Shown here: positions 12,361 to 51,395 of the stretch, one piece after another
Numbering within the stretch: the first letter of the stretch is position 1
Layout: every line of letters begins with the position of its first letter
From: Candidatus Yanofskybacteria bacterium
GTDB taxonomy: Bacteria; Patescibacteriota; Minisyncoccia; 2-02-FULL-40-12; IGHO2-01-FULL-4-A
Assembly: GCA_016185545.1 (NCBI GenBank)
Contig: JACPNJ010000005.1
Location: 4,549 to 68,548, forward strand
DNA length: 64,000 nucleotides
Direction of reading: 5' to 3'
Program-made: the position numbers and the translations under genes
The notes under the pieces: model-generated
Seen by the model: only the letters and a program-made list of their open reading frames with translations
Told to the model about the DNA's origin: nothing
The model's database searches: none

Positions 12361-12431
12361 TAGGGACTAGGGACTAGTTGCTAGCTTTAAATCCGAAACC
12401 TAGAACCTAAAACCTAAAACCTAGAACCTGG
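12361..12431. repeat. Heptamer tandem arrays (tagggac x2.4; aacctag/aacctaa x5) in the groES upstream region
   Basis: Direct head-to-tail 7-mers between the CIRCE element and the groES start. Confidence 0.85.
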
Positions 12432-14417: not shown

Positions 14418-15419
14418 CTACTGCGTGGTCAACCCGGAGTCTTTTTCTATTGCCAGTTGTGGTAAATTTAGTTTTAGCATTCGCTCGTTGTAATCCTTAA
14501 TTATTCGCATCTCTATTGAATGCGGATGAAATTCCAGCTGTTCATCAGTAAAAATCACACGCCCGCCAGTCTGATGACTCACGGGGTTGTGCGCGATGCG
14601 CCGCGATTGATAATGGCCAAACCATTTTTCCAAAACTCTAGCAATGCCGAAGTTATCAAGTAACCATTCAGTCAACTTCACCAAGAATTGAGAAGTTGAG
14701 CTTCTCAAACGAAGCTCAACTTCTTTATTTTCAATATCCCACTCGCAAACATAATCAAGCACCCAACCATTGGCTTTCTTGAAGTCATCTATTAATTCAC
14801 TATCACTGACAAAAATTGGCACGAGATTGGCATAGGTTTGGGCATTATAAATACTTTTGTGGGGAATACTCAGCGATTTATCTGTTATGTAATGGTTGAG
14901 GCAGATTTTATTAGGCGCAATCTTGTCATTGCCACGGCGACGCACGCGCAGGAGTGATAATAAGCCGGTTATGAAAAAGCGTGTCAGCCAGATTCGGCCA
15001 TGTTTAATAATGACTAAAACGTCCAGGTCGCTTAGCTCATCCATATTTCTCATGGCTAATGACCCTGAAGCAAAAACCACTTTTACATATGGTACTAAGT
15101 GTAGCCACCAAACGGCACGCTTGGTAATCTGCCATTTTCGTTGAGCGATTTTTTCACGCTTTATTCGCAATGGCACCAGATATTCCCGGTCAAATAGAAA
15201 ATAGTAACCCTCGCGTAAGCCAATGACTCCCTCCAAAATTAATTGGTCAAGTTCTCGAGAGACAGTGGACAGTGGACAGTAGACAGTGGACAGTAGGCTA
15301 ATGCCTAGATGTTGAAAATTTATCAAGTAATTAAAAACTTCTTCCATTTTCAACGGGAAATCAAAAACATCGTAATAGGTAAGGGTTGCCAGGATATTTT
15401 TTTTAAATTCGGACACCAT
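14418..15419 (-). CDS. nucleotidyltransferase-domain protein (hypothetical)
   Basis: GSLAMRNMDELSDLDVLV Pol-beta-type NTase motif; contains two in-frame repeat insertions. Confidence 0.5.
   Translation of the reverse strand: MVSEFKKNILATLTYYDVFDFPLKMEEVFNYLINFQHLGISLLSTVYCPLSTVSRELDQLILEGVIGLREGYYFLFDREYLVPLRIKREKIAQRKWQITKRAVWWLHLVPYVKVVFASGSLAMRNMDELSDLDVLVIIKHGRIWLTRFFITGLLSLLRVRRRGNDKIAPNKICLNHYITDKSLSIPHKSIYNAQTYANLVPIFVSDSELIDDFKKANGWVLDYVCEWDIENKEVELRLRSSTSQFLVKLTEWLLDNFGIARVLEKWFGHYQSRRIAHNPVSHQTGGRVIFTDEQLEFHPHSIEMRIIKDYNERMLKLNLPQLAIEKDSGLTTQ
14691..14724. repeat. In-frame palindromic element agaagttgagcttctcaaacgaagctcaacttct
   Basis: Near-perfect 14-bp arms; same family as the elements in murC and trpS; encodes EVELRLRSSTS. 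Confidence 0.8.
15261..15295. repeat. Heptamer tandem array (gacagtg/gacagta)x5 inside the NTase coding sequence
   Basis: Five head-to-tail 7-mers encoding STVYCPLSTV. Confidence 0.9.
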
Positions 15420-15561
15420 TAAAACATTAGCAAATATGCGTTACAAAAACAAAAACTGTTTTAGCGAGTAATCCGATCCTGTTTTTGGAATCAAATTAAA
15501 AAGCCCGCTATTTGCGGACTTGTTATCTAATCACTAAGGGACTAATCACCATAAACTAGTT

Positions 15562-24965: not shown

Positions 24966-26393
24966 ATGAAAATTAATCCCAAAATCGTGCCCAAAACACC
25001 GGGTGTTTATTTTTTCCGTGATAAACATGGGCAAATTTTGTATATCGGCAAAGCGGTTAACTTAAAAAATCGCTTGGCCAGCTATTTTAAATCTCAACTT
25101 GGCGGTCGGACCGCTAAGTTGATGGAAAAAGCCATAAGAGTTAATTGGCAAAAGACTGATTCCGAAATAGAAGCCCTGATTTTAGAATCACAACTTATTA
25201 AAAAATATCGTCCGCCGTTCAACGTAATGCTGCGTGATGATAAACAGTATTTTTTTGTTGGATTCACGAAAGATGTGTTTCCACGCATCTTCTTGACTCA
25301 TCAACCGTTTGATTGTCGACGCTTAAAAAATTCAAAATCTAAATTTCAAAATTCAAATAATCTAAAACCTGATTTCGTTGGTCCATTCACTGATGGAAAT
25401 GCGCTAAGGATAACCTTGCGACTTCTGCGCCGCATATTTCCCTATTGCACTTGCAAGCAAAAGCATAATAATTATTGTTTGAATTATCATATTGGGAAAT
25501 GTTTGGGGTTTTGCTGTCTGAAAGATCAGAATCTAGAATCTAGAAAGCAGAATCTAGAATCATATAAGAAAAATGCCAGGGCGATAAAAGATATATTGAC
25601 AGGCAAGCGAAGCAGTTTGATAAAAAGATTTAAAAAAGAAATGCTGGAACTTGGCAAAAAACATGATTTTGAAAAAGCGATTGAATTACGCGATAAAATT
25701 ACGAAACTGAAAAAAGTTTTTGAGAATGCCCGCATCATTCTAGATTCCAAAAACAGGTCTACAGACAAAGATGCTTTAAAAAACTTAGCCAAAATTATCG
25801 GCACAAAATATATCCCAAAGCGAATAGAGGGTTATGATATTTCTAATATCCAAGGCGAATTTGCTACTGGTGCAATGGTCGTTTTTGTTAACGGCCGGCC
25901 TGATAAAAGCCAATACCGTAGGTTTAAAATTCGAAATTCGAATATCAAAATTCGAAACAAATCCAAAATTCAAAATTCAAAATCACAAAAGGTTTCGGAT
26001 TTCAGATTTCATGCTTCGGATTTCCGCTCTGTCGGAGATACGGCAATGTTGCGTGAAATATTAACTCGTCGGTTTAATCATCCGGAATGGCCACGGCCGG
26101 ATTTAATAATCGTAGACGGCGGTAGGGCACAACTAAATGTTGCAGCTAAAATAATCTATGGACATCGCAAGACCATAGGTCTTGCGATGACGGAAAATCT
26201 GATTCCGATTGTTGCTTTGACCAAAAACGATAAACACCGAGGAAGCCACATTTATGTTGGCGCTAAAAAAGCGGCTGTACCGTTGAAACAGTTACCATCG
26301 GCGGTTAGAAATCTGATTCTTCAAGTTGATTCAGAGACCCACAGGTTCGCGATTAGTTATTACAAAAAATTGCACAGAAAATTGGGCAAATAA
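24966..26393 (+). CDS. uvrC: excinuclease ABC subunit C, short form lacking the C-terminal (HhH)2
   Basis: GIY-YIG (GVYFFRDKHGQILYIGKAVNLKNR), Cys cluster, UVR domain, RIEGYDISNIQG/IIVDGGRAQL endonuclease domain; ends at 475 aa. Confidence 0.85.
   Translation: MKINPKIVPKTPGVYFFRDKHGQILYIGKAVNLKNRLASYFKSQLGGRTAKLMEKAIRVNWQKTDSEIEALILESQLIKKYRPPFNVMLRDDKQYFFVGFTKDVFPRIFLTHQPFDCRRLKNSKSKFQNSNNLKPDFVGPFTDGNALRITLRLLRRIFPYCTCKQKHNNYCLNYHIGKCLGFCCLKDQNLESRKQNLESYKKNARAIKDILTGKRSSLIKRFKKEMLELGKKHDFEKAIELRDKITKLKKVFENARIILDSKNRSTDKDALKNLAKIIGTKYIPKRIEGYDISNIQGEFATGAMVVFVNGRPDKSQYRRFKIRNSNIKIRNKSKIQNSKSQKVSDFRFHASDFRSVGDTAMLREILTRRFNHPEWPRPDLIIVDGGRAQLNVAAKIIYGHRKTIGLAMTENLIPIVALTKNDKHRGSHIYVGAKKAAVPLKQLPSAVRNLILQVDSETHRFAISYYKKLHRKLGK
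25528..25562. repeat. Heptamer array (agaatct-like x5) inside uvrC
   Basis: agaatct agaatct agaaagc agaatct agaatca; encodes QNLESRKQNLES. Confidence 0.8.
25919..26035. repeat. MITE-like aattcga/ttcggatt element inserted in frame in uvrC
   Basis: Same family as 11921-12045; encodes RNSNIKIRNKSKIQNSKSQKVSDFRFHASDFRS, which is absent from E. coli UvrC at this position. Confidence 0.5.
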
Positions 26394-27516: not shown

Positions 27517-27548
27517 TATAAACTGTGAACTGTAAACTGTGAACTTTT
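27517..27548. repeat. Heptamer array (aactgtg/aactgta) downstream of secG
   Basis: aactgtg aactgta aactgtg aactttt. Confidence 0.8.
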
Positions 27549-29547: not shown

Positions 29548-29631
29548 GCTCGGGTGGTGAAATTGGCAGACACGTTAGCTTCAGGAGCTAATGGGAGCAA
29601 TCCCGTGGGAGTTCAAATCTCCCCCCGAGCA
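29548..29631 (+). tRNA. tRNA-Leu (anticodon CAG), type II with long variable arm
   Basis: Acceptor GCTCGGG/CCCGAGC, anticodon arm TTAGC-ttCAGga-GCTAA, variable-arm hairpin GGGAgcaaTCCC, T-arm GGGAG-ttcaaat-CTCCC; CCA not encoded. Confidence 0.85.
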
Positions 29632-29980
29632 CAATTGAACGAAGTGAAATTGGGAGTGGGGAGCAACACGCCTGCGCGTGTTGCGTGGAGATGAGAACGC
29701 CGGAGCGATGTTTGACGAGCAATCGGTGAGTCAAACCGCGAGGAGGTGGCTAGACTAAATTAGCGGAAGCTAATTTAAGTCAAAGCCAAATCTCCCCCCG
29801 AGCACAATTGAACGAAGTGAAATTGGGAGTGGGGAGCAACACGCCTGCGCGTGTTGCGTGGAGATGAGAACGCCGGAGCGATGTTTGACGAGCAATCGGC
29901 GAGTCAAACCGCGAGGAGGTGGCTAGACTAAATTAGCGGAAGCTAATTTAAGTCAAAGCCAAATCTCCCCCCGAGCACAA
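29615..29980. repeat. Tandem 173-bp direct repeats (2 full copies plus a 20-bp partial) beginning inside the tRNA-Leu 3' end
   Basis: Units at 29615-29787 and 29788-29960 differ by 1 nt; the partial copy at 29961-29980 abuts the ATG of the downstream ORF. Confidence 0.85.
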
Positions 29981-37906: not shown

Positions 37907-38494
37907 TTGAAAATATCCGGGGCTATTATGAACTTTGATAACTTATCTAGTGAGGAATTAAAAAAATTACTCACCATGGGTCGAACATCCGGTAAAAGAA
38001 TGGCTTTTGAATTTTGGCTCAAGCACATAGAACTAATCGCTCCCAGGGAAACTGGCATAGGCAAAGACCAGCAGCATTACACGGCAAGATTCTTAACACG
38101 GTTTTCTCTGGTTTCAACCACACATTCAATGTTCCACTTTCCTACTTTCATGAGTTTGGCGCAAATTTATGACGAATTCGTGCAGGATATTGAAAACCAG
38201 TATTCACCGGAACCCATGGAAATAGCCGGTTACCAAACTTTACTGCTTGGCGGGTTTTATCTGAAAGCCGCAAGTAAACATTACAACATGGAAGACATAC
38301 GAAAAATGGGCGAATTATTTTTCACCCGCGGAGCAATCGGCAAAAGAAAATCCGTAATCAAAAAAATGGCTCATAATTTTAGCCGATGGCAAAATACGCT
38401 TTGTTATCTTGAATGGTATTTAAGAAATGAAAGATTAGTCATTCAAAAAGCAGAAAAACCCGACGAGCCCCTCATCAAAATCATCCCCCGCTAG
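37907..38494 (+). CDS. hypothetical protein adjacent to the DGR
   Basis: ORF only; its stop overlaps the RT stop by 4 bp (convergent). Confidence 0.35.
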   Translation: MKISGAIMNFDNLSSEELKKLLTMGRTSGKRMAFEFWLKHIELIAPRETGIGKDQQHYTARFLTRFSLVSTTHSMFHFPTFMSLAQIYDEFVQDIENQYSPEPMEIAGYQTLLLGGFYLKAASKHYNMEDIRKMGELFFTRGAIGKRKSVIKKMAHNFSRWQNTLCYLEWYLRNERLVIQKAEKPDEPLIKIIPR

Positions 38495-39501
38495 GGGGAT
38501 TTATATTTTAAAATTTCGGCTTTTAGTTCGTTGGAATTTCCGTGGCTCAAAAGGCCTAGATACGATTCTATTGCCGCAATGTCAGGATTTGATTTAAGTT
38601 TTTTTAACATTCTTCTCTTTGTTGTTGTTCTCAATATTCTGTGGTCTGGAAAATTCACCCACCCCAGAAAATCAACACCCGAATTAATGGTTTTTATGAA
38701 AATTTTACCGGGATGTAATTCTAGTTTAAGATTTTCGGATAAAAAAATCTGAATAGGGTTGATTATACCTTTAAGCCAGGCTTTGTAGGGTGAAATTATT
38801 ACAAAGTCGTCTGAATATCTGACATAGTATTTAGCCTTGAGTTTGTGCTTAACAAACTGGTCAAACTTGTTCATATAGATATTTACGAAAAGCTGTGATG
38901 TTAAGTTACCAAGCGGCAAGCCAACGCCTATTTTCTTGGACGAGAAACTTTTAATGATTTGGTTAAGAAGCCACAAAATATCCTTGTCCGGTATGTTCTC
39001 AACCAAAATTTTTTTCAGTACTTCATGGTCAATATTTTTAAAGAATTTCTTGATATCACACTTTAATATCCAACAAGTGCGAGTATTGTTTTTATTGGCT
39101 TTGTGGGCAAAACTCCTGAAACGGTTTATTGCTTTATGAGTTCCTTTGCCGACTCTGCACGAGAATGAATCGGGAATAAACACTCGGTCAAGGAACGGAC
39201 AAAGTTGCCTACAGACGGCATGGTGAATCAAACGGTCCCTTACTGGCGATTTGTGTATTTGCCTTGGTTTGGGGTCATTGATACGAAAAGATTGATATTT
39301 GCCGTGCTTATAAGTTTTGCCCATCAATTCATGGTGAAGTTCGATAATATTGTCCATCAAATTCATACTGAATTTTTGGACATCTTTCTTTTTGCGCTTT
39401 CCTTTCAAAAATTCTTGCCAAGAATGAAGCAGATTGTCTATACTTACAACATCGTAAAAACAAACACAAAAACCACCTTTATGCCCCCCCCCCAACAACA
39501 A
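38491..39501 (-). CDS. diversity-generating retroelement reverse transcriptase
   Basis: N-terminal IDNLLHSWQEFLKGKRKKKDV, SFSCRVGKGTHKAINR, DGR-specific GLPLGNLTSQLFVNIYMN, YVRYSDDFVI (YxDD). The start is ambiguous: TTG in the given frame, or an ATG if the G-tract is 9 long. Confidence 0.85.
   Translation of the reverse strand: MLLGGGHKGGFCVCFYDVVSIDNLLHSWQEFLKGKRKKKDVQKFSMNLMDNIIELHHELMGKTYKHGKYQSFRINDPKPRQIHKSPVRDRLIHHAVCRQLCPFLDRVFIPDSFSCRVGKGTHKAINRFRSFAHKANKNNTRTCWILKCDIKKFFKNIDHEVLKKILVENIPDKDILWLLNQIIKSFSSKKIGVGLPLGNLTSQLFVNIYMNKFDQFVKHKLKAKYYVRYSDDFVIISPYKAWLKGIINPIQIFLSENLKLELHPGKIFIKTINSGVDFLGWVNFPDHRILRTTTKRRMLKKLKSNPDIAAIESYLGLLSHGNSNELKAEILKYKSP
39484..39493. repeat. C10 (+ strand) / G10 homopolymer at the overlapping 5' ends of RT and avd
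   Basis: Read directly from the sequence. A 9-nt tract would give avd an ATG start at 39481 and RT an ATG start at 39517. Confidence 0.9.
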
Positions 39502-39502
39502 T

Positions 39503-39850
39503 TTGTCGATTATTCATGGTTTTATTGAATTATACAAAGTCTGGCAAAAAATATTTCCCCACTTTCCGACCACCTCCAGACACACGCTCGGATACAGAAT
39601 AGATAATCTTCTCGTGGAAATAGCTGAATTATTGTTTCTGGCGCAATTTGCAACCGGCAATCTTAAGTTATCTCTGGTTGAAAAAACATCACAGAAACTA
39701 GATACGATAAAATTCCTGTTAAGGTTGGCTTGGGAAGTTGAATCTATGGAAGAAAAGAAATATATAATTTTGTCTGAATATCTGCAAAACATTGGGAAAC
39801 AACTTGGCGGTTGGATAAAATATATAAGAAAAGAAAACTCTCCGCGTTGA
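39503..39850 (+). CDS. avd: DGR accessory variability determinant (Avd), four-helix-bundle type
   Basis: C-terminal GKQLGGWIKYIRKEN resembles bAvd ..GRILGSWIARVNRK; IKFLLRLAWEVE resembles bAvd LRFWLRFLA; 115 aa. It lies on the strand opposite to RT, TR and the target gene. Confidence 0.7.
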   Translation: MSIIHGFIELYKVWQKIFPHFPTTSRHTLGYRIDNLLVEIAELLFLAQFATGNLKLSLVEKTSQKLDTIKFLLRLAWEVESMEEKKYIILSEYLQNIGKQLGGWIKYIRKENSPR

Positions 39851-39866
39851 GCAGAGAGAAACAGAG

Positions 39867-40007
39867 ATAGTTTCGAGGCAGAACGAACACGAAGCGATAG
39901 TCAGAATCAAAGACGTTGTCGGGATTGCCGTAATACGCGTTCAACCAAGGTTCGCCATCGTTACGATTCACATCGAACACGTTCAGGTTGCCGTCGGAGT
40001 CAGTAAT
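39867..40007 (-). repeat. DGR template repeat (TR), template strand minus
   Basis: Aligns to 40261-40401 at an offset of 394 bp. All 16-17 mismatches are T on the + strand, which is A on the TR coding strand; there are no other mismatches in 133 bp. Confidence 0.85.
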
Positions 40008-40197
40008 GTATGGCATACCGTCTATACCACCACCCCTTGAGTTTTCTCAGGGTTGAATCTAATTTGATATCTAAATCATACCCTAGTACACCACACCAAG
40101 TATGTCTGTTTTTTTTTGAGGCCGCTCAAAGCCTTCTAATTTTGACCGTGAGCATGTCGCCGTATCTATAATATAACTTATTTCCGAAATAAAAAAG

Positions 40198-40230
40198 GGT
40201 CAGTCAATGATAAAAATATTGACCGACCCA
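40198..40230 (-). terminator. hairpin plus U-run downstream of the VR/target gene
   Basis: Minus strand: gggtcggtcaat..attgactgaccc followed by ttttttatttcgg. Confidence 0.5.
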
Positions 40231-40260: not shown

Positions 40261-40401
40261 TTACTTGCGAGGCAGAACGAACACGAAGCGATAGACAGAA
40301 ACAAAGACGCTGTCGGGACAGCCGCAAAACGCGCCCAACCAAGGTTCGCCATCGAAACGATTCACAACGAACACGCGCAGGCTGCCGTCGGAGTCAGTAA
40401 G
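40261..40401 (-). repeat. DGR variable repeat (VR) at the 3' end of the target gene
   Basis: See the TR entry. The TR-encoded peptide has Asn (AAY) where the VR peptide has S/R/F/G/C/K, and TR Asp/Tyr codons also vary. Confidence 0.85.
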
Positions 40402-40914
40402 TGGCTCCATGGCAACTACGAGACACTCTCCATCGGGCTGATCCTTGTACTGATCGCGCAGTGCCGGACCAACTTCGTTTGGACAGAGTTGACCGCCGAC
40501 CTCAACTATCCTGGCACAGATGTCATCATACCGGGTACTCTTCTTGAAACCGAGTTCAGCAACCGACATGACACACAAATCCACTTCAATCTCTGCCTGC
40601 GAGATGGAGATTTTGTGGAGAATCTGCTGTGCCCAATCACCGATTCGGGTAGTACCTCCACGCTTCAGGGCACTCGCGTAAGCCTTCGGGGTCTTGTGAA
40701 GGCCCAGTCTGATGGTCCCCCAAACCTTCAGCACTGGCAAAAGCCCAAGAAACTTCTGGAAGACATCTCTGACAGGCAAAGTATTTGACTTGATTGCCCG
40801 AGCCAGGTCTGATAGATACCCGCTGTGCAGTGTGTTCATCTCCTCACCGGAGAGCTTCTGCTGATCCAGCAGATTAAGTGTCTGCTGGGCATGACCAAAA
40901 GTTGCATTGCTCAT
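40261..40914 (-). CDS. DGR target protein (217 aa) with C-terminal variable region
   Basis: AGGAGG RBS; GC content higher than its surroundings; C-terminus ..DGEPWLGAFCGCPDSVFVSVYRFVFVLPRK is VR-encoded; no signal peptide. Confidence 0.8.
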   Translation of the reverse strand: MSNATFGHAQQTLNLLDQQKLSGEEMNTLHSGYLSDLARAIKSNTLPVRDVFQKFLGLLPVLKVWGTIRLGLHKTPKAYASALKRGGTTRIGDWAQQILHKISISQAEIEVDLCVMSVAELGFKKSTRYDDICARIVEVGGQLCPNEVGPALRDQYKDQPDGECLVVAMEPLTDSDGSLRVFVVNRFDGEPWLGAFCGCPDSVFVSVYRFVFVLPRK

Positions 40915-50705: not shown

Positions 50706-51323
50706 TTAAAAATCTATAACTTTTGCTTTTTTATAATACTCCTCCAATACCTCCCAATTCAGATTTTTCCAAAACACAGCAATGTATGCCTTGCGGTCAC
50801 TGCCGTGATCTATGAAATATGCATGCTCATAGACATCAAGCGCAATTATCGGAATACAACCCCAAACGGCATGGTCGTGAGTATCGCCGTTGTATTGTTT
50901 GAGTCGCTTCTCATGCAGGTCCCAGGCCAGCACCGTCCAGCCACGAGCGGCCATGGCGCATTCGCCGAAGTATTTCTGGAAATTCTCCGCCGAGCCCCAT
51001 TTCTCTGATATTGCCGCCGCGAGCTCGGGCGCTTTTTTATAATCCCCATCTCCGCCAAGTGCGCCAAAAAACCATTCATGCAAATAAACACCATTTACAG
51101 CAAATGTCTCGCCGAGTTTCAATGCGCGGAGCTTGCTATAAGTCGTATTCCCGCCGGGCGCAGTACCGGCAATAATTTCATTCCGTAGCTTCCCGAGTTC
51201 ATCTCCTATCTCATTGGCTTTATCAACATAGCCCTTATAGAGCTTACCGTGGTGGATTTCGTTAGTTTTTGTGGATATGCCATCTAATTCTTTATCAAAC
51301 GGCAATGGTTTGAGTTCGTACAC
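50706..51323 (-). CDS. sod: Fe/Mn superoxide dismutase
   Basis: HHGKLY, ALDVYEHAYF. Confidence 0.9.
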   Translation of the reverse strand: MYELKPLPFDKELDGISTKTNEIHHGKLYKGYVDKANEIGDELGKLRNEIIAGTAPGGNTTYSKLRALKLGETFAVNGVYLHEWFFGALGGDGDYKKAPELAAAISEKWGSAENFQKYFGECAMAARGWTVLAWDLHEKRLKQYNGDTHDHAVWGCIPIIALDVYEHAYFIDHGSDRKAYIAVFWKNLNWEVLEEYYKKAKVIDF

Positions 51324-51324
51324 A

Positions 51325-51395
51325 GGTTATAGGTTATAGGTTATAGGTTATAGCTTTATTGCATCTATAATCTATAAGCTATTACCTATCAGCTA
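51325..51395. repeat. Two heptamer arrays (ggttata x4; ctatNNN x5) between sod and grx
   Basis: Read directly from the sequence. Confidence 0.85.

Follow-up and report, generated by a model that had tools for sequence, protein, structure and literature searches.

The prototype of the diversity-generating retroelements (DGRs), that of Bordetella phage BPP-1, has the order mtd-avd-TR-brt: avd lies upstream of the template repeat (TR) and runs in the same direction. DGRs of the candidate phyla radiation (CPR) are mostly built otherwise. Their architecture B3 is written TR-(avd)-RT, where RT is the reverse transcriptase gene and the parentheses mark the reverse strand, and it makes up 90% of the CPR DGR set of Wu et al. 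(2018, NAR 46:11, PMC5758913); the CPR-restricted DGRs are clade 2 of Roux et al. 2021 (PMC8144416). The subject here is a DGR of this second kind, found in 64,000 nucleotides of a Candidatus Yanofskybacteria assembly (GCA_016185545.1, contig JACPNJ010000005.1, positions 4,549 to 68,548; this whole stretch is called the window, and positions are counted from its first letter), and in particular a simple-sequence repeat at positions 39484-39493, where the 5' ends of avd and RT meet head to head.

On the minus strand the window reads: target gene with its variable repeat (VR), TR, avd (on the opposite strand) and RT. A preliminary description, made from the letters alone, took this to be an unusual cassette. 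Its reading of the strands was right: with gene identities and directions checked, avd faces the opposite way to RT, TR and target, and, as avd is on the plus strand and TR on the minus strand, it converges on TR. The layout is odd only beside the Bordetella prototype, because B3, already described, is the norm of the clade. Relatives were taken as the 80 best RT matches from species-representative genomes, 57-68% identical to the window RT. Where their records name a lineage they are nearly all Patescibacteria/CPR metagenome-assembled genomes; a few bear other binning labels, and some say only ‘bacterium’. In every one of the 73 that have more than about 70 nt of DNA upstream of RT, avd stands directly upstream of RT on the opposite strand, and the synteny comparison that had been proposed as a check thus finds the inverted avd universal in the clade. 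By contrast, the classical order avd-TR-RT, all in one direction, is that of 33 phage DGRs from IMG/VR, whose RTs are about 30-35% identical. The window DGR accordingly belongs, as a typical case, to the CPR DGRs that are clade 2 of Roux et al. 2021. It shares with B3/clade 2 elements the order and strands of target/VR, TR, reverse-strand avd and RT, the lack of any further accessory gene, a single adjacent target, and a target protein without recognisable domain. In gene order there is no difference; the published accounts that we found describe neither a junction repeat nor a head-to-head overlap.

Set beside BPP-1, the window has the same Avd fold, an RT, adenine-specific differences between TR and VR, an invariant 3' segment like the initiation of mutagenic homing (IMH) sequence, and a stem-loop just 3' of TR, at the position of the stem-loop to which Avd binds in BPP-1. 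The two differ in the direction and placing of avd; in the RNA 3' of TR, some 140 nt that are non-coding in BPP-1 and here antisense to the 3' end of avd; in the ‘cPRT Stop’ duplex, of which no counterpart was detected in the window; and in the junction repeat, which BPP-1 lacks.

The repeat itself is best compared with the contingency loci: the poly-G tracts of Campylobacter jejuni, the poly-G/C and tetranucleotide tracts of Neisseria and Haemophilus, and the (TA)n tract of hifA/hifB. As in these, an uninterrupted repeat whose unit is not a multiple of three stands at gene 5' ends, its length varies in near-identical sequences, and in-frame and out-of-frame alleles are both found among relatives; as in hifA/hifB, two divergent genes share one tract. 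The differences are that the genes concerned are targeted hypermutation machinery, not surface structures or restriction-modification enzymes, and that in the window's subclade a single tract would be part of the coding sequence of two overlapping divergent open reading frames (ORFs). There remain the B3 DGRs without a repeat, which have the same architecture and differ in having a continuous in-frame avd, in effect locked on.

We lean, with some caution, to the view that slipped-strand phase variation of the tract gates Avd, and in the window RT too, and with them retrohoming. The wider proposition, that a hypermutable repeat gates the hypermutation machinery across the CPR DGR clade, and that one tract toggles two overlapping ORFs in the window's subclade, we regard as evenly poised. 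The gene order (B3) and the 3' stem-loop are known; the junction repeat and the head-to-head overlap of starts are apparently undescribed. Neither these nor phase variation linked to a DGR was found in the literature searched; an earlier mention elsewhere, for example in Paul et al. 2017, the main paper on CPR DGRs, is possible.

The repeat at the avd/RT junction

The tract reads C10 on the avd strand and G10 on the RT strand, and is the sole run of G or C of seven or more in the 64 kb. Junctions of relatives could be stacked for 74 loci. At the same position 64 of them hold G7-G14 (read on the RT-sense strand), and seven others hold (GT)8, (GT)10, (AG)16, (GA)12, (GA)6, (CT)10 or (TTGG)10 at the same spot; a simple repeat is thus present in 71/74, the loci without one being L021, L032 and L047. 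Repeat units are of 1, 2 or 4 nt, never 3, and the dinucleotide and tetranucleotide types run to 6-16 copies. Elsewhere these loci, 583 kb in all, contain four G/C runs of eight or more, a background of about 4e-4 per 60 nt. In metagenomes a pattern scan added at least 120 further junctions with G7-G13; the 33 phage DGRs with co-directional avd, which serve as a control, have no repeat at the junction.

What is conserved is therefore the presence of a simple repeat, its unit 1, 2 or 4 nt long, and no one sequence. A specific binding site is thereby excluded. So are a G-quadruplex and a polypurine tract, as (CT)n, (GT)n and (TTGG)n fill the same site. A repeat of varied units at a fixed site is the signature that a contingency repeat would be expected to leave.

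One alternative is that the tract does nothing: that it is a mutational by-product, or an artefact of assembly or sequencing, and that avd and RT start at their TTG codons. Short-read data are indeed error-prone at homopolymers, and the window ORFs can be read from TTG starts without the tract. We nevertheless consider this very improbable. The repeat is kept at one position among RTs that are 57-68% identical, in many CPR lineages and in independent sequencing projects, where an unselected repeat would decay by point mutation, so that its persistence counts against lack of function; five types of repeat occupy the same site; the background rate is as low as just given; and the three clade members that lack the repeat are all locked in frame.

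The length of the tract is unstable. In 19 pairs of contigs the flanks, over 600 nt, show an identity of at least 99.5%. For three of these pairs tract length is the sole difference: L048 with G10 and L187 with G11, L116 with G9 and L161 with G7, L128 with G8 and L168 with G9, the members of each pair coming from different samples. The flanks have 1 gap in 11,216 nt, which puts the excess in the tract at 180-fold (Fisher p = 2e-5). At 80-91% flank identity the length differs in 11 of 14 pairs. One of the three near-identical pairs bears directly on frame: L128 (G8) has avd in frame and L168 (G9) has it out of frame, and the two are the same strain in two JGI samples with adjacent accession numbers. 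This polymorphism is shown in relatives, from assembled contigs.

One junction is of unusual size. In L006 (JAUYOU010000022.1) the avd and RT cores are 212 nt apart, as against the usual 75-120 nt or so; besides (GT)8 the junction holds an extra AT-rich insert flanked by the inverted repeat CCCCGTTAGAAAT / ATTTCTAACGGGG. The extra DNA may be a small insertion.

Start codons and reading frames

In the window as assembled, no in-frame ATG stands at the 5' end of either gene. The canonical starts that are in frame are all TTG, at 39503 for avd and at 39501, 39498 and 39495 for RT, and the two ORFs are 1 nt apart. The RT TTG codons lie directly 5' of the G-run, and the tract is read as Gly-Gly-Gly; no recognisable Shine-Dalgarno sequence stands before the TTG starts of either gene. 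Each strand also has an ATG out of frame: on the plus strand at 39481-39483, abutting the C-run, and on the minus strand at 39517-39515, which is 24 nt ahead of the G-run. Three-frame translations place each ATG, at tract length 10, one base off the frame of its gene. At length 9 both ATG ORFs are in frame and overlap by 37 bp (39481-39517), the avd ATG being in frame at 9 or 12; the length-9 products would begin MPPPNNNLSIIHGF... (Avd) and MNNRQIVVGGGHKGGF... (RT), and the predicted N-terminal peptides are MPPPNNNLSIIH... (Avd) and MNNRQIVVGGGHK... (RT). The preliminary description had the 5' ends of RT and avd overlap by about 37 bp if the ATG starts were real. Both ATGs exist, and at tract length 9 they overlap just so, but at the assembled length of 10 they are out of frame; that the 5' ends can overlap in principle is borne out by the relatives that have no repeat.

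The two ATGs of the window are tied to each other. The RT His codon that follows Gly-Gly-Gly is antisense to the avd ATG, and Avd His5 is antisense to the RT ATG. Because each ATG is thus the codon-aligned antisense of a codon of the other gene, one change of tract length restores both frames, here as in the rest of the RT subclade, and the two restorations are not independent evidence. As assembled, we read the element as being in a low or off state, since at length 10 the ATG ORFs are out of frame and only weak TTG starts are left.

Seven B3 loci without a repeat indicate how the junction is built when nothing disturbs the frame: L203-L206 from IMG/VR (RT 45-50% identical; in these four, TR and VR differ almost only at TR adenines) and L021, L032 and L047 from CPR. 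All seven have an uninterrupted, ATG-started avd. The starts of avd and RT abut in L206, are 2 nt apart in L204, and overlap by 15-21 nt in the other five; in these (L203, L205, L021, L032 and L047) the genes overlap head to head with each Met codon antisense to a His codon of the other gene. In L021 both genes open on one and the same stretch of 21 nt: RT begins with ATGAAAATCAAATTGGTTCAT (MKIKLVH), and avd (MNQFDFH) begins with its exact reverse complement. In the repeat-bearing loci, an ATG-started ORF enters the tract in frame with avd in 19/71, against 7/7 of the repeat-less (Fisher p = 2.5e-4). This argues that the repeat lies in a coding N-terminal extension of avd and randomises its frame.

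The mechanism that we propose would run as follows. The genes avd and RT would be expressed divergently from abutting or overlapping 5' ends, with no true intergenic region between them. Avd would start at the ATG upstream of the tract, on the antisense of the N-terminal His codon of RT, which would place the tract inside an N-terminal extension of Avd; in the window's subclade RT appears to have lost its downstream ATG, so that the tract would also lie within the RT N-terminus. A slipped-strand change of length would then shift the frame and turn Avd, and here also RT, on or off. Mutagenic retrohoming would be gated stochastically, and at any time only a changing subpopulation would diversify its target. 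We infer that the upstream ATGs are functional starts and that changes of tract length control DGR activity.

A second possibility is that the tract acts outside the coding sequence, in a shared promoter or leader region where its length tunes transcription or the structure of the leader, and with them the levels of Avd and RT, without any effect on frame. Such a case exists: the length of the (TA)n tract between Haemophilus hifA and hifB alters promoter geometry. The start codons of relatives give this possibility some footing. RT has an ATG of its own (typically MKIQLxH) about 20-25 nt after the tract in 154/172 loci. At position 1 of the Avd model the codon is TTG in 41 loci, TTA in 28, CTG in 13, CTT in 11, CTA in 5, CTC in 1, ATG in 5 and GTG in 3; TTG, ATG or GTG (about 46% of loci) would place the tract 5-12 nt upstream of the avd start. 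TTG is enriched there, 41/99 against a background of 21%, two-fold (p = 4e-6), and is invariant in the window's subclade, where it may be a secondary start. The fraction in frame, moreover, equals random expectation.

In 54% of loci position 1 is taken by TTA or CTN, and thus by an internal Leu, which speaks for a repeat in coding sequence. Against a promoter or leader role, no canonical start stands between tract and avd core in 59/172 loci; and in 14 loci of the unbiased genome set, window included, RT has no start after the tract and its frame is open through it (six of these have an in-frame upstream start, and eight have an ATG-started ORF only in another frame). The flanks of the tract are poorly conserved, with less than 0.6 bit of information per position, no conserved -35/-10 elements were found beside it, and a promoter-like -35/-10 pair with the tract in its spacer occurs in only 3 and 7 of 172 loci (at ≥8/12). 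Tracts of 24-40 bp, such as (GA)12, (AG)16 and (TTGG)10, are too long for a promoter spacer; repeat units are never 3 nt; and the repeat-less relatives, 7/7, are in frame from an upstream ATG. A tract that tunes levels only is thus a possible explanation, though a doubtful one; for RT, in most loci, a promoter or leader role may hold, with no promoter geometry in its favour.

Two observations on the surrounding sequence may be set here. A strong sigma-70-like sequence, TTGATA-17-TATGAT (10/12), stands on the avd-sense strand about 150-190 nt inside RT in about half of loci L001-L202; the window lacks it. On the opposite strand the same stretch encodes the conserved RT peptide HTYKHGxYQ. We have treated the site as a coding by-product, though it may instead be a conserved promoter of avd within RT. 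The RT start ATGAAAATTCAATTG (15 nt, MKIQL) recurs exactly, synonymous sites included, in at least 120 metagenome contigs, while RTs of the clade are about 60% identical; such conservation agrees with a stretch that codes on both strands, the second product being the N-terminus of Avd.

A third possibility is programmed slippage: RNA polymerase slippage, or +1 frameshifting on CCC-C, would give a constant low amount of in-frame Avd or RT from a gene that is out of frame. Homopolymers of nine or more are prone to slip in transcription, and CCC-C is a classic +1 frameshift site. The distribution of phases gives this some weight. Of 154 loci, 82 carry a tract one base longer than the in-frame length, whereas 34 are in frame and 38 show the third phase. 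In the unbiased genome set this bias is less marked (28 against 15 and 22), the larger set being phylogenetically clustered. The dinucleotide and tetranucleotide repeats of seven loci fit DNA slippage better than frameshifting on proline codons, and tract length varies between near-identical contigs. We therefore hold programmed slippage to be improbable.

Several points weigh against phase variation of the coding frame, and they are of different kinds. Some concern the starts. The upstream ATGs, being antisense to conserved His codons, could be by-products. The codons TTG, ATG or GTG at Avd position 1, the window's among them, may mean that avd starts after the tract and independently of it; nor do the relatives offer conserved promoter elements beside the tract in support of a start site. 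Others concern the frames. The 27% of loci in frame is what random phase would give, and so the frames alone are no proof that the extended ORF is used; the excess of the one-base-longer state hints at frameshifting or transcriptional slippage, not DNA switching, though a bias towards expansion might also produce it. The antisense frame of the RT leader seemed at first always open (71/71), a sign that we rejected, as in a three-frame test it is open in 85% against 76% and 22% and is unspecific.

Still others concern the polymorphism. The reversible change of length within populations that we infer has as its basis assembled contigs of relatives. Differences between contigs may in part be homopolymer errors of sequencing or assembly, some contigs having 2-6x coverage, and some identical pairs may be one assembly deposited twice. 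For the window's own strain, an exact-protein look-up of its Avd, RT, YchF and the 195-aa neighbour ORF returned no record, and that of the target protein returned two contigs, L081 and L082, which, having been retrieved by exact identity of that protein, are uninformative on retrohoming. In L081 the tract is also G10, so that within the strain, as seen in this one other contig, there is no polymorphism; and L081, the window's only strain-level comparison, may come from the same project as the window.

These points notwithstanding, we retain slipped-strand phase variation as the favoured reading. Four features of contingency loci are found here: a repeat long enough to be unstable, a position at which its length would alter expression, and, among relatives, length polymorphism and alleles both in frame and out of frame.

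The DGR genes and the RNA 3' of TR

The locus is a complete DGR of Patescibacteria/CPR type, with signs of past, recent activity. The ORF at 39503-39850 on the plus strand (115 aa) is Avd by three hidden Markov model (HMM) libraries: it matches Pfam bAvd PF22296 at 47 bits (cut-off 40), aligns end to end with NCBIfam DivGenRetAVD at 62.8 bits, under the 80-bit cut-off of that model, and matches PHROG 3206, ‘Avd protein of DGR’, with E 9e-15. Its single-sequence AlphaFold model has a pLDDT of 91.5 and four helices; Foldseek gives as best match in the PDB the Avd of Bordetella phage, 4DWL, at TM 0.84-0.87, and also finds 8UB7, a DGR ribonucleoprotein, by its Avd chains. When the PDB was searched with the window Avd by sequence or profile, 4DWL was not reached. 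The preliminary description had named two ways in which the inverted avd might be spurious, a failure of the ORF to match Avd models and a local misassembly. Neither is borne out: the three libraries and the predicted fold agree on Avd, the independent Logan contig L081 is 100% identical over target, TR, avd and the start of RT, and the orientation is common to 73/73 relatives. We give the idea of a misassembly, or of an ORF that is not avd, practically no credence.

The RT ORF, 38491-39501 on the minus strand, is an RVT_1 protein (80.5 bits); NCBIfam has nothing above cut-off for it, the best partial match being a group II intron RT. Its translation shows the motifs LGNLTSQ and YSDD. TR is at 39868-40006 on the minus strand, 139 nt with 31 adenines. 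VR, at 40262-40400 on the same strand, is the last 139 nt of the target ORF and ends at its stop codon. TR and VR differ at 17 positions, 16 of them TR adenines (read on the minus strand), so that 16/31 adenines are changed; 29/31 TR adenines fall in the first or second codon position. Variable adenines extend as far as TR position 106, positions 107-133 are the same in TR and VR, and the two then diverge; an invariant 3' segment of 27 nt is consistent with what is expected of IMH and IMH*. Among relatives, TR with adenine-specific mismatches was found near the avd stop codon in 116/156 loci, mostly 0-40 nt before the stop and in a few farther away, and in 115 of the 116 VR lies upstream on the strand of TR.

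The target gene (40261-40914, minus strand, 217 aa) carries VR at its 3' end. Searches of its protein against Pfam, NCBIfam, PHROG and PDB sequences gave no match, its single-sequence AlphaFold model (pLDDT 37) is unusable, and its variable C-terminus (…DGEPWL.A…G.PD.VF.S.YRFVFVLPR) could not be assigned to the C-type lectin or any other fold. Upstream of the gene there is a promoter-like site, TTGACT-18-TATAAT (11/12), at 41085-41056 on the minus strand. A second such site, TTGCCA-18-TATACT (10/12), at 39415-39444 on the plus strand inside the 5' coding region of RT, is a weak candidate for an avd promoter, which would put the C-run in the leader or N-terminal region of avd; its motif is not conserved among relatives. 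An Rfam search over 38.3-41.3 kb gave nothing relevant.

Just 3' of TR, at 39828-39858 on the minus strand, is the stem-loop CTCTCTGC-TCAAC-GCGGAGAG, followed by TTTTCTTTTC: a stem of 8 bp, a loop of 5 nt and then a U-run. It begins 9 nt after TR, contains the avd stop codon (39848-39850), and is present in both the minimum free energy (MFE) and the centroid folds of the whole RNA from VR to avd. Relatives have the same arrangement. With the 60 nt after TR as search space, a GC-containing hairpin of 6-12 bp starts 0-19 nt after TR in 93/116, as against 56/348 random windows (16%), and in 87 of the 93 at least six of the next 10 nt are T; the sequence of the stem varies among loci and its position is constant. 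Hairpin and T-run occur together in 121/163 loci, against 33/420 random windows (8%, p ~1e-57) and 6/163 on the avd-sense strand (4%, p ~1e-44). The T-run, present in 115/116 loci, may stem in part from the opposite strand, which there encodes the Lys-rich C-terminus of Avd.

The DGR RNA of the Bordetella phage opens, 3' of TR, with an 11-bp stem-loop (nt 3-33 of the segment downstream of TR) to which all five Avd protomers bind; about 140 nt 3' of TR are required there for priming and processivity, and stem-loops ‘just downstream of TR’ are predicted in 207/278 Avd-containing DGRs, CPR included (Handa et al., bioRxiv 10.1101/2023.10.23.563531). The window stem-loop has the form of that element (a stem-loop of about 9-11 bp directly 3' of TR) and is best read as a candidate counterpart of it. 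It also has the form of an intrinsic terminator, in that on the transcribed strand the GC-rich hairpin runs straight into a stretch of U, and may be one that ends or attenuates the TR transcript, a role compatible with binding Avd. A further hairpin, of 12 bp with a U-run, lies at 40187-40229 on the minus strand, about 30 nt after the target stop codon, again in both MFE and centroid folds. It looks like the terminator of the target gene, and may double as the inverted repeat downstream of IMH, the invariant 3' end of VR that marks the homing site. The two hairpins bracket TR in a unit of about 400 nt, within which no recognisable sigma-70 promoter was found; given so strong a hairpin and U-run behind the target gene, TR may be its own transcription unit.

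How far the TR RNA extends bears on the remaining proposal of the preliminary description, one long TR transcript that runs antisense through avd to RT and regulates avd, in an architecture thought unusual. The geometry permits it, as TR, antisense avd and RT adjoin one another on the minus strand; there is no convincing RT promoter at the junction, and the Bordetella DGR RNA needs about 140 nt past TR, which here are antisense to the 3' third of avd. Should the Bordetella mechanism hold, some 100-140 nt 3' of TR would be needed, antisense to the last third of avd. On the other side, the architecture is the norm (B3) of the clade; a stem-loop and U-run of terminator form stand between TR and the body of avd in the window and in 74-80% of relatives; and a long-range duplex like the one by which the Bordetella phage RNA halts cDNA synthesis (‘cPRT Stop’), sought between 60 nt upstream and 160 nt downstream of TR, was no better than in shuffled sequence by RNAduplex or by longest contiguous helix. 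The sequence fits an RNA that ends at the hairpin, one that runs about 100 nt into antisense avd, and one that reaches RT, any of which may be the case. We think the single long regulatory transcript unlikely, and find no specific support for antisense control of avd by the TR transcript.

At the other end of RT, the palindrome ATCCCCCGCTAGGGGGAT (38483-38500), with T-runs on both strands, lies between RT and ORF 37907-38494, a convergent ORF of 195 aa without family match, and resembles a terminator for both directions.

Other repeats in the window, and what a DGR switch would mean

The window holds further tandem repeats. Heptanucleotide repeats of 4-9 copies, some of them perfect, are found at 1834-1863, 12396-12429, 15261-15294, 25327-25983, 27521-27545 and 51324-51353, with units GTAACTG (x4.3), AAACCTA (x4.9), GACAGTG (x4.9), AAAATTC-type arrays and AGGTTAT (x4.3). 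Each is placed within the 5' part of an ORF or a short way upstream of it: AGGTTAT x4 adjoins the 5' end of ORF 50709-51326 (minus strand), and GACAGTG x5 is near the 5' end of ORF 14421-15440 (minus strand). As a 7-nt unit shifts the reading frame, these may be further contingency repeats. A larger repeat, a 173-bp unit present 2.1 times at 99% identity (29614-29980), starts within the 3' end of the tRNA-Leu(CAG) gene (29548-29632) and could be an integration scar or a duplicated attachment site.

The inverted avd is in itself unimportant, being the documented norm for CPR DGRs. The layout does have a consequence: it forces the RNA 3' of TR, which is indispensable in Bordetella, to share its sequence with the coding region of avd, which leaves two options: a DGR RNA of much reduced length is enough here, or it and avd act as an antisense pair. 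The repeat has a practical consequence as well, in that gene callers will mis-annotate the starts of avd and RT, or call pseudogenes, in most such loci.

DGRs generate protein variants in very large numbers, and to our knowledge how cells limit or time so risky an activity is essentially unknown. If the favoured reading is true, a contingency repeat in avd and RT would be a simple, heritable and stochastic on/off control of the DGR, in a part of the bacterial tree that is among the richest in DGRs and the least tractable. It would be a second-order contingency switch, one that acts on a targeted mutator.

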